Made by a program: the position numbers and the translations under genes. A DNA stretch of 58,118 nucleotides, counting the filler, from Basidiobolus ranarum (Eukaryota): assembly GCA_040143965.1 (NCBI GenBank). It is 2 parts of 2 records of this genome, joined end to end, with 100 filler letters (N's around TTAATTAATTAA, not from the genome) between each part and the next. Parts side by side here need not be neighbours in the genome. Positions count along the whole stretch, not along the records: positions 29,120 to 58,118 come from JASJQH010000109.1; 1 more part is not named here. One strand, 5' to 3'. A model generated the notes under the pieces. It did no database searches and was not told the DNA's origin. It was given only the letters and a program-made list of their open reading frames with translations. The first letter of the stretch is position 1. The number at the start of each line of letters is the position of its first letter. Positions 54,327 through 56,076 of the stretch are shown piece after piece.

Positions 54327-56076
54327 ATGCCCTCAATACGCCTCACACTTGTTAATAATGCGAAACAGACTCAGCGTTCTGGAGTAATTTTAAAGTTAGA
54401 CGATTCTACATTATCTGATTCAGTAGATAATACCATCTTGCAAGAAATCTTTACTTTGGCTAAGAATAAACTTCGTCTTAAGAAAGCAAAGACACTTTTC
54501 TTGACTAACGGCGTTGAGCTCACAGATCCAAGATGGTTACTGGATGGACGAGTGGCACAAGATAGGTATTTGCAAACTGACATCTAACAATATCATCCGA
54601 ATGTCTCTGATCACCTCTTACTTCTAGTTTGATCTACGTATCTTGTGGAGAAGGTTTTGTTGGTACAATTTCAAAGCCAGCATCATCAGTAGCACAGTCT
54701 AACATTCTAGATGATCAAATGACGGAGCGAAAAGAATCAGCATCGATCACTGTTCTTGCCAGGTCGAGCTACGTCGATCCAGAATCAATCATACAACTTA
54801 ACAAGACTGCATTGTTACCCGGCATGCAGCAGGTCATTGGACAGCCGGATCTGCATCCTGGTAAGAAGAATAAGTAATTATCACCGAGCAAACGCACTAA
54901 TACTTTAAATGAAATAGGGAATTTGTATCCTATTGGCGCCAGTTTTATTACCCATAAGTATATTTACCCGGCCTTGATTGGAAACGATATTGTAAGGGGC
55001 TCATTATATATACTTGTTAAACTGGTTACTTATTCTGATATTTAGGGTTGTGGAATGGCCTTTTACAAAACAAAGCTCTCCTCCAATATCAAGCCACAAA
55101 AGATTGTCGACAGACTGCATGGTATAGAAGGTCGCTGGCAGGAAGGTGACCCACAGTCTTTTCTAACCTCCATTCTGGGACCTGATCATGCTCAAACTGG
55201 GTCCGCACATTCGGATCAACTAGGAACTGTTGGTGGGGGTAACCATTTCGCAGAGTTCGTCATAATCGAGAAACTTGTGGATCAGGATTTATGCGCTAAT
55301 TTTGGGTTAACAGAGTCGCATACGTATCTTATTGTACATTCTGGATCTAGACGGTTCGGGCAGACGGTTTTGGAAGAGGCCGCATCCAATATGCCAGGAG
55401 GAACGCACAAAGGAATTGAAGCTGATTCAGATGTTGGAAGGACATACCTTGAGCAACATGATCGTGCATGCGCCTGGGCAAGAGTCAATCGCGAGTTGAT
55501 TGCACATCGTGTTCTTTCGAAACTAAATTCTGAAGAAAGTGCGGAGAAGATCCTTGATATATGGCATAATAATGTGGAGCGAAAGCAGATTGAAGGCTTG
55601 GGAGATTGTTGGGTACACCGAAAGGGTGCTGCACCAAGTGATAGAGGATTAGTTGTAATTCCAGGTAGTAGAGGACATCACAGCTATCTTGTCATGCCGC
55701 AGGGATCCCAGAATCTGAATGGTAGGGAAAACTGTTAGCTTTATTGAAGCCATCTATGACCATTCTATTTATTCTTGAGTTGCTTCGTTTTAAAATAGGC
55801 TTCTCATTAGCTCATGGCGCAGGTCGTCTTTTGCCTCGTGCCAAAGCACTTCAAAAGCGGCCACAGGCCTCCAAATCAAGTGCCATCACTGCTATGCAAA
55901 CTACCGATTTGGGATCAAGTGTGATCTGCGAAGACACCAACTTGTTGTTCGAAGAGCAGCCAGCGGCTTACAAGGACATATCTGCCGTCATCACAGACCT
56001 AGAGCCTTTTGTCAAAGTAATTGCCATCCTGAGACCCATCTGCACCTACAAAATGAGGAAAGAGGAAAGATCGTAA
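54327..56076 (+). CDS. RtcB-family RNA ligase of the release-factor-H-coupled (RtcB2) type with an extra N-terminal domain; 4 introns
   Basis: Introns 54566-54627, 54861-54917, 54992-55045 and 55722-55798 give GQPDLHPG.LYPIGA, YPALIGNDIGCGM, LGTVGGGNHFAE, VHSGSR, WHN, HRKGAAP, IPGSRG..SYLV, SLAHGAGR, LGS.VICED and EEQPAAYK. Confidence 0.9.

Follow-up and report, generated by a model that had tools for sequence, protein, structure and literature searches.

Gene structure and ligase family

We examined a 58,118-nt stretch of the genome of the fungus Basidiobolus ranarum (assembly GCA_040143965.1; the whole stretch, about 58 kb, is called the window here) and describe a gene at positions 54327–56076 of its + strand, with five exons and four introns, whose 499-aa product is predicted to join an N-terminal β-grasp domain to a complete RNA ligase of the RtcB2 family. 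The reading frame opens with an ATG at 54327 and closes with a TAA at 56074–56076, and the spliced coding sequence (CDS) of 1500 nt translates into a protein that agrees letter for letter with the annotated NCBI protein K7432_003533 (hypothetical protein, Basidiobolus ranarum; here P0001). Residues 1–92 make up the predicted DCX/KHA/CIDE-N-like β-grasp domain (54327–54664, split by intron 1), residues 93–117 a disordered linker (54665–54739) that differs in length among homologues and falls in gappy alignment columns, and residues 118–499 the RtcB2 catalytic domain (54740–56073, split by introns 2–4). An earlier note on this DNA had counted a compact length among the RtcB2 signatures of the product; that description does not hold for the 499-aa protein, of which only the RtcB part (about residues 118–497) is of bacterial RtcB2 size, with residues 1–92 forming an extra folded domain.

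The exons, all on the + strand, divide the protein between its two domains. Exon 1 (54327–54565) encodes residues 1–79 and two bases of codon 80, which is most of the β-grasp domain, and exon 2 (54628–54860; residues 80–157) continues from the last strand of that domain (LIYVSCGEGFVG) through the linker and into the start of the RtcB part as far as PDLHPG. Exon 3 (54918–54991; residues 158–182) contains Asp181 and ends on the motif GNDI, exon 4 (55046–55721; residues 183–407) carries Cys184 (55049–55051) together with GGGNHF, VHSGSR, WHN, HRKGAAP and PGSRG, and exon 5 (55799–56076; residues 408–499 and the stop) contributes SLAHGAGR with the codon of the predicted guanylylated His413 (55813–55815). 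All four introns start with GT and end with AG: intron 1 (54566–54627; 62 nt, GTATTT...TTCTAG) lies within the N-terminal domain, intron 2 (54861–54917) has 57 nt (GTAAGA...AAATAG), intron 3 (54992–55045; 54 nt, GTAAGG...ATTTAG) interrupts the invariant metal-ligand motif DI/GCG (the slash marks the junction), and intron 4 (55722–55798) has 77 nt (GTAGGG...AAATAG). Reading through any of them, intron 1 included, soon meets an in-frame stop, the stop-to-stop frames ending at 54587, 54877, 55045 and 55738, and splicing rebuilds junction-spanning motifs that are invariant among homologues (PDLHPG/N, GNDI/GCGM and LN-G-FSLAHGAG).

Profile searches point to RtcB2 along the whole catalytic domain. 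The full product scores 226.3 bits against the Pfam RtcB model (PF01139; cut-off 27), to which exon 4 (121.5 bits, 7.1e-35) and exon 5 (50.7 bits, 2.1e-13) each match separately. Against the NCBIfam model of PrfH-coupled RtcB, TIGR03073, it reaches 354.3 bits (cut-off 271.8) with residues 124–487 covering profile positions 6–356 of 356, a cut-off that all eight scanned relatives, eukaryotic or bacterial, also exceed. Exon 4 alone gives 186.4 bits with TIGR03073 and 209.7 bits with the stricter equivalog NF007153. Solved structures are distant: Pyrococcus horikoshii RtcB aligns at 89.6 bits, mainly over residues 237–490, and the human RTCB chains in the Protein Data Bank (PDB) at 63.6 bits (E 1.3e-16) over residues 239–490 only.

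The motifs that the earlier note listed were each located in the spliced product: PDLH at 153–156, DIGC at 181–184, GNH at 247–249, HSG at 280–282, HN at 356–357 and SLAHGAG at 410–416. They align with PDGH, DINCG, GNHF, HTGSR, AHN and CHGAGR of the P. horikoshii chain, with His413 opposite the histidine of STCHGAGR, and we take His413 to be the counterpart of the guanylylated His404 of RtcB. In RtcB structures the metal is held by Asp, Cys, three His and Asn, and the histidine of HGAG is the nucleophile. Among the aligned rows, the catalytic and GTP-site residues D154, D181, C184, N248, H249, E252, H280, H356 and H413 are conserved in 43–44 of 44 eukaryotic sequences, in 78/78 bacterial RtcB2s and in 7/7 other bacterial RtcB paralogues, and position 156 is His in 40/44 eukaryotic and 77/78 bacterial RtcB2 rows. 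All 122 RtcB2 rows have R391 in the PGSRG motif and the seven other paralogues all have Met there, which makes R391 an RtcB2-specific signature; together with H373, also specific to RtcB2, it is conserved in every one of the 44 eukaryotic rows.

By these criteria we assign the product to the RtcB2 family, with intact catalytic residues, and not to canonical RTCB. The preference of the earlier note for RtcB2 over metazoan RTCB is thus borne out by the TIGR03073 score, by the low score of human RTCB and by the trees described below, in which the protein groups with prfH-linked bacterial RtcBs. With canonical RTCB (HSPC117; P. horikoshii, human) it shares the PF01139 fold family, the catalytic residues and presumably the three-step GTP/Mn2+ chemistry, and it differs in being distant from these proteins and in having PGSRG in place of the PGSMG shared by the P. 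horikoshii chain and the seven bacterial paralogues.

A bacterial-type ligase in a fungal assembly could also reflect bacterial contamination, a pseudogene or two genes wrongly fused, and it is true that the nearest non-eukaryotic homologues are bacterial and that some related database entries resemble fused gene models. At this locus an artefact of any of these kinds is effectively refuted, and we assign it almost no probability. The four introns are of spliceosomal type and splicing them out restores invariant motifs, every catalytic residue is intact, and the fusion of N-terminal domain and ligase is not a product of joining two genes because exon 2 by itself encodes the end of the first, the linker and the start of the second. 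The flanking genes are eukaryotic as well. Elsewhere in the window lie genes for importin-β, ribosomal protein S2, Mon2, Atg22, a GH3–GNAT protein, isochorismatase and alcohol dehydrogenase; the importin-β exon shares 94% identity with B. ranarum Kap95 and 57–66% with every other fungus listed, and the RtcB CDS (GC 0.449; GC at third codon positions, GC3, 0.40) resembles its neighbours (GC 0.42–0.44, GC3 0.34–0.48). With eukaryotic housekeeping neighbours and matching composition, the RtcB2 gene is native to the host nuclear genome, in line with the claim in the earlier note that its four GT–AG introns mark a real nuclear gene.

Three further features of the window were recorded. The GH3–GNAT protein is encoded at 46941–49604 (+) by one unbroken 887-aa frame with glycoside hydrolase family 3 N- and C-terminal domains and GNAT acetyltransferase domains, and an intron-free fusion of this kind is unusual for the B. 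ranarum genome. The importin-β frame at 37315–39270 (−) is 94% identical to the best B. ranarum Kap95 entry and 82% identical to a second, partial one (entries P0121 and P0126), a mismatch that suggests several diverged copies or haplotypes in B. ranarum or, alternatively, non-coding ends in the query frame. Two runs of 44 N occupy 29020–29063 and 29076–29119.

Phylogenetic placement among RtcB2 proteins

We placed the protein in trees built from the RtcB-domain columns alone, with the N-terminal domain removed. A quick tree of 129 rows comprised 44 eukaryotic RtcB2s, 78 bacterial RtcB2s and seven other bacterial RtcB paralogues, and a second of 91 rows was made after removing the longest branches and kept four of the other paralogues. 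The 44 eukaryotic sequences sampled all fall into one clade within the bacterial RtcB2 radiation, with Shimodaira–Hasegawa-like approximate likelihood ratio test (SH-aLRT) support of 91 in the 129-row tree and 99 in the 91-row tree, and in both trees the other bacterial paralogues are separated from the RtcB2 clade at SH-aLRT 99–100. The fungi in the eukaryotic clade are Mortierellaceae, chytrids, Endogonales, Calcarisporiella, two basidiomycetes and Basidiobolus, and they are joined by Capsaspora, Nuclearia, Arcella, Naegleria, Willaertia, Acrasis, the green alga Ostreobium and the lycophyte Selaginella. The clade is weakly linked to sequences from cyanobacteria, Sericytochromatia and Ca. Finniella (SH-aLRT 88).

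Since a single eukaryotic clade spans at least four supergroups, the acquisition was not specific to fungi, and the trees suggest instead that RtcB2 was transferred into eukaryotes or spread among them. The earlier note had described a bacterial RtcB2 domesticated in a fungal genome; the bacterial-type origin stands, with the protein inside the bacterial RtcB2 radiation, and the fungal scope gives way to one clade of 44 sequences from at least four supergroups. A phylogeny had been suggested there as a check, and it supports the RtcB2 placement apart from other bacterial paralogues, with eukaryotic RTCB not among the rows of either tree. Other eukaryotic RtcB2s, annotated as 'release factor H-coupled RctB family protein' in Capsaspora, Linnemannia, Rhizoclosmatium and Selaginella among others, share this clade with the B. 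ranarum protein and mostly share its architecture.

This placement bears on whether the enzyme might serve as a housekeeping ligase for tRNA or HAC1 mRNA splicing, replacing or backing up Trl1. Trl1, the resident ligase of fungi, uses ATP, contains kinase and cyclic phosphodiesterase (CPDase) modules and leaves a 2′-phosphate; it likewise joins 2′,3′-cyclic phosphate and 5′-OH RNA ends, but it is an unrelated protein with other chemistry. RtcB enzymes can perform such splicing in other organisms, according to one report (PMC12699882). The B. ranarum protein, however, falls in RtcB2, outside the archaeal and metazoan splicing clade, its patchy distribution among eukaryotes is unlike that of an essential enzyme, and Tian et al. 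2022 (PMC9304027) state that fungi and plants use Trl1. We therefore consider a housekeeping role in splicing unlikely, to the point of giving it very little weight, and B. ranarum RtcB2 is not expected to be a tRNA-splicing enzyme.

Several relationships inside the eukaryotic clade were observed along the way. B. ranarum RtcB2 is 65–69% identical to its Mortierellaceae homologues at full length and up to 76% over the RtcB domain, forms with them a 12-row clade (SH-aLRT 100), and is only 39–47% identical to the proteins of other fungi, Mucoromycota included; by contrast, importin-β from the same window is 57–66% identical to Mortierellaceae and other fungi alike. The closeness to Mortierellaceae could reflect fungus-to-fungus transfer or hidden paralogy. 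The sole Basidiobolus meristosporus homologue listed (P0067, 404 aa) is 43% identical and has no N-terminal domain. Its branch is long and lies in another part of the eukaryotic clade, and the entry may represent either a divergent copy or a gene model that was cut short. An approximately unbiased (AU) test did not reject the two Basidiobolus proteins as sisters (p = 0.314), and we therefore make no claim that they are different paralogues. The Selaginella moellendorffii protein (P0034, on a 1.13-Mb contig) carries the N-terminal domain and is nested among fungal sequences in both trees, with the forks there unresolved, a position that hints at transfer between eukaryotes.

The N-terminal domain of eukaryotic RtcB2s

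Residues 1–92 align across homologues from fungi, Selaginella, Nuclearia, Willaertia and Arcella and are missing from bacterial ones. A profile built from 25 eukaryotic RtcB2 N-termini was run on 63 named eukaryotic homologues, among them all 25 used to build it, and detected the domain in 59; the four lacking it are those of Capsaspora and B. meristosporus and two transcriptome entries. The same profile found it in none of four named bacterial homologues and, in six-frame translation, in none of 80 bacterial loci. One apparent bacterial instance, an Achromobacter locus (L073) whose tblastn match extended over query residues 2–494, was rejected: its RtcB open reading frame (ORF) is 378 aa long and the N-domain hidden Markov model (HMM) was negative in all 80 loci.

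AlphaFold2 models the isolated domain as a confident β-grasp fold (predicted local distance difference test score, pLDDT, 84.7). The full-length model has a pLDDT of 89.6, with a confident catalytic part and values below 50 at residues 95–114. The conserved Met-Pro start belongs to the first strand of the modelled fold and leaves no room for a cleavable presequence, and the protein thus looks cytosolic. In a Foldseek comparison with the PDB the best matches were Drep4, Drep2 and CIDE-N domains (E 2.7e-4 to 1.6e-3, template modelling (TM) scores 0.61–0.83), led by the CIDE-N domain of Drep4 (E 2.7e-4, TM 0.67–0.72) and followed by doublecortin, including chains 5ip4 and 2dnf, and ubiquitin. A structure search of the Atlas returned the KHA domain of KCTD9 (TM 0.69), DCDC1 (TM 0.67) and CIDE-N as well.

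The profile also connects the domain to known families at the sequence level. Searched against 1.84 billion representatives, it matched 350 proteins at E<=1e-3, a mixture of RtcB fusions, fragments and long proteins in which 3–10 repeats occur. Nine of the top matches were scanned against Pfam: six carry DCX2_DCDC1, DCX and Ubiquitin_DCDC1 above the Pfam cut-offs, five of these six also carry KHA, and the remaining three are an RtcB fragment, a protein with histone deacetylase, N-domain and RtcB in succession, and one without any family. The multi-repeat DCX/DCDC1/KHA proteins are matched at E 1e-31 to 1e-16. Single relatives out of the 25 match DCX2_DCDC1 (1/25) and CIDE-N (1/25), and exon 1 of the B. 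ranarum gene alone retrieves nothing in Pfam or NCBIfam. Taken on profile and model evidence, the extra domain is a predicted β-grasp of the DCX/KHA/CIDE-N type restricted to eukaryotic RtcB2s. With DCX, DCDC1, KHA and CIDE-N domains it shares the modelled fold (TM 0.6–0.7 to CIDE-N and DCX structures), and it differs from them in being, in B. ranarum, too diverged for their Pfam models.

Other eukaryotic RtcB2 architectures occur in the databases (P0303, P0071, P0102, P0058). They include a histone deacetylase followed by the N-domain and RtcB (925 aa) and Arrestin_N followed by the N-domain and RtcB (946 aa); further ones combine Macro with RtcB (539 aa) and RtcB with BTB (677 aa). Some of these multi-domain entries may be merged gene models, and the Macro–RtcB fusion would fit an RNA-repair context.

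PrfH and the proposed repair function

Bacterial RtcB2 is encoded in an rtcB2–prfH operon of the type found in E. coli ATCC 25922 and CFT073, and we searched the 58-kb window for a PrfH partner. None is encoded there: the best of 41 PrfH tblastn queries reached E 0.014 and the PrfH HMM E 1.8, so that the remark in the earlier note that no PrfH was in view extends to the whole window. Weak tblastn matches at 18702–18845 (E 0.017–0.3) were set aside as chance, lying in a frame that lacks GGQ and looks by eye like a metallo-β-lactamase fold.

The bacterial relatives are, for the most part, coupled to PrfH. Species-representative prokaryotic genomes yielded 544 relatives, from which 80 loci were retained and an RtcB ORF was recovered in 74. 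In 56 of the 74 a GGQ-containing ORF lies on the same strand within 400 bp of the RtcB ORF, and in 41 of these 56 it is 195–225 aa long; all ten such neighbours tested against the PrfH model TIGR03072 pass it with 202–309 bits (cut-off 166.65). When a profile of ten PrfHs was run against the protein database, 7942 of 7998 scored candidates matched at E<=1e-10, and among the best 120 of the 7942 all named organisms are bacterial; any eukaryotic PrfH would rank lower. Tian et al. 2022 (PMC9304027) report PrfH from bacteria only. A myxobacterial subclade of RtcB2 type (L038, L044, L047, L051, L055, L070, L028, L043 and L017; SH-aLRT 100) has no clean prfH-sized GGQ ORF adjoining, and RtcB2 lacking an adjacent PrfH therefore occurs in bacteria too.

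The B. ranarum protein thus shares with bacterial RtcB2 the subfamily, by HMM and by tree, the length of the catalytic domain, R391, H373, all metal, GTP and nucleophile residues and 42–46% identity over the domain. It differs in having no adjoining prfH, in being encoded by a nuclear gene with four introns, in its added N-terminal domain and linker, in scoring slightly below the NF007153 equivalog cut-off and in being known here from its sequence.

What bacterial RtcB2 does is known from E. coli, where it mends 30S subunits that colicin E3 has cut between A1493 and G1494 but leaves tRNA unrepaired, with PrfH first releasing the stalled 70S ribosome (Tian et al. 2022, PMC9304027). A 2026 report (PMC13166195) adds that RtcB2 on its own can mend cut 30S and 70S particles and that PrfH only speeds the repair of translating ribosomes. 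An anti-ribotoxin role for the eukaryotic proteins was already proposed by Tian et al. 2022 (PMC9304027), who counted 98 eukaryotic RtcB2s and predicted 40S repair, and we regard this as a reasonable inference. The most likely function of the B. ranarum enzyme would be the GTP/Mn-dependent resealing of ribotoxin-cut RNA. Overall, we somewhat favour the reading in which an expressed-looking nuclear gene encodes a two-domain enzyme, in which some 25 disordered residues connect a β-grasp domain (residues 1–92) to a complete RtcB2 ligase (118–497), and which would reseal such breaks.

Modelled on the RtcB family mechanism, the reaction would begin with the guanylylation of His413 in the presence of Mn2+ and GTP; GMP would then be moved from His413 to the RNA 3′-phosphate, or to an opened 2′,3′-cyclic phosphate, and the 5′-OH would attack the activated end and reseal the break. 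By analogy with E. coli RtcB2, the only characterised member, the preferred substrate would be rRNA of the small subunit that has been cut at the decoding centre, or else a similar nick left by a ribotoxin. As RtcB2 needs no PrfH to act on free subunits and vacant ribosomes, the general rescue machinery of a eukaryote could take over the PrfH step, the release and splitting of the stalled ribosome then falling to Dom34/Pelota–Hbs1–ABCE1. The β-grasp domain most likely serves protein–protein docking or assembly and so positions the ligase, judging from the roles of KHA, CIDE-N and DCX domains elsewhere.

The main competitor to ribosome repair is that the enzyme is a general RNA-repair ligase for tRNA and other small RNAs, one that would heal tRNAs which anticodon nucleases, killer toxins or stress RNases have cleaved, in place of rRNA. 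The catalytic core is common to all RtcB enzymes, tRNA-targeting toxins are well known among fungi, and the loss of PrfH coupling together with the gain of a new N-terminal domain could accompany a change of substrate. Tian et al. 2022 (PMC9304027) state that no toxin cutting the eukaryotic 18S decoding centre is known. The one characterised RtcB2, however, is strictly specific for cut 30S and repairs no tRNA (same source), and the RtcB2-specific residues R391 and H373 are retained throughout the eukaryotic rows. We consider a general repair ligase possible but doubtful.

Against the resealing of ribotoxin-cut RNA by an RtcB2 enzyme we also set the following points, alongside the missing 18S-cutting toxin. 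The stricter equivalog NF007153 is just missed, at 397.8 bits for residues 115–497 against a cut-off of 407, which homologues of Capsaspora, Quaeritorhiza, Selaginella and Naegleria exceed. The tree supports are SH-aLRT values from quick searches, and because the trees left out canonical eukaryotic RTCB, its exclusion rests on the HMM and PDB scores. The N-terminal domain of B. ranarum itself finds no Pfam match among DCX, KHA, DCX2_DCDC1, Ubiquitin_DCDC1 and CIDE-N at E<=5, and only three of the 25 relatives match PF25510, weakly (best E 2.6e-4). Eukaryotic RtcB2s, finally, are known from sequence alone.

A bolder extension of the favoured reading, ribotoxin-cut RNA resealing, is that the eukaryote-specific DCX/KHA-like domain replaces PrfH, docking RtcB2 on damaged or stalled ribosomes, on the rescue machinery or on microtubule-bound sites of translation and so providing self-contained repair against toxins, as yet undiscovered, that cut the 18S decoding centre. 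We hold this to be rather unlikely. The presence of RtcB2 in eukaryotes without PrfH is already in print (Tian et al. 2022, PMC9304027), and the protein was already annotated; the apparently new point is the DCX/KHA-like domain that the sequence comparisons place on RtcB2 across eukaryotes. The literature searched, supplements not covered, yielded only Tian et al. 2022 on eukaryotic RtcB2 and gave no account of an RtcB with a doublecortin or KHA domain, though one may be described in those supplements.

Only in bacteria has a cleaved ribosome been shown to be repaired, and Tian et al. 2022 (PMC9304027) leave open how a eukaryotic ribosome would acquire such damage and how it would be rescued without PrfH. 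The B. ranarum gene is an intact and clear-cut case in a fungus that can be cultivated, and the N-terminal domain shared among eukaryotes is a concrete handle on what the ligase is attached to. If that domain does replace PrfH, eukaryotes would have an enzyme that mends ribosomes on its own and is aimed at 18S-cutting toxins of a class yet to be discovered.

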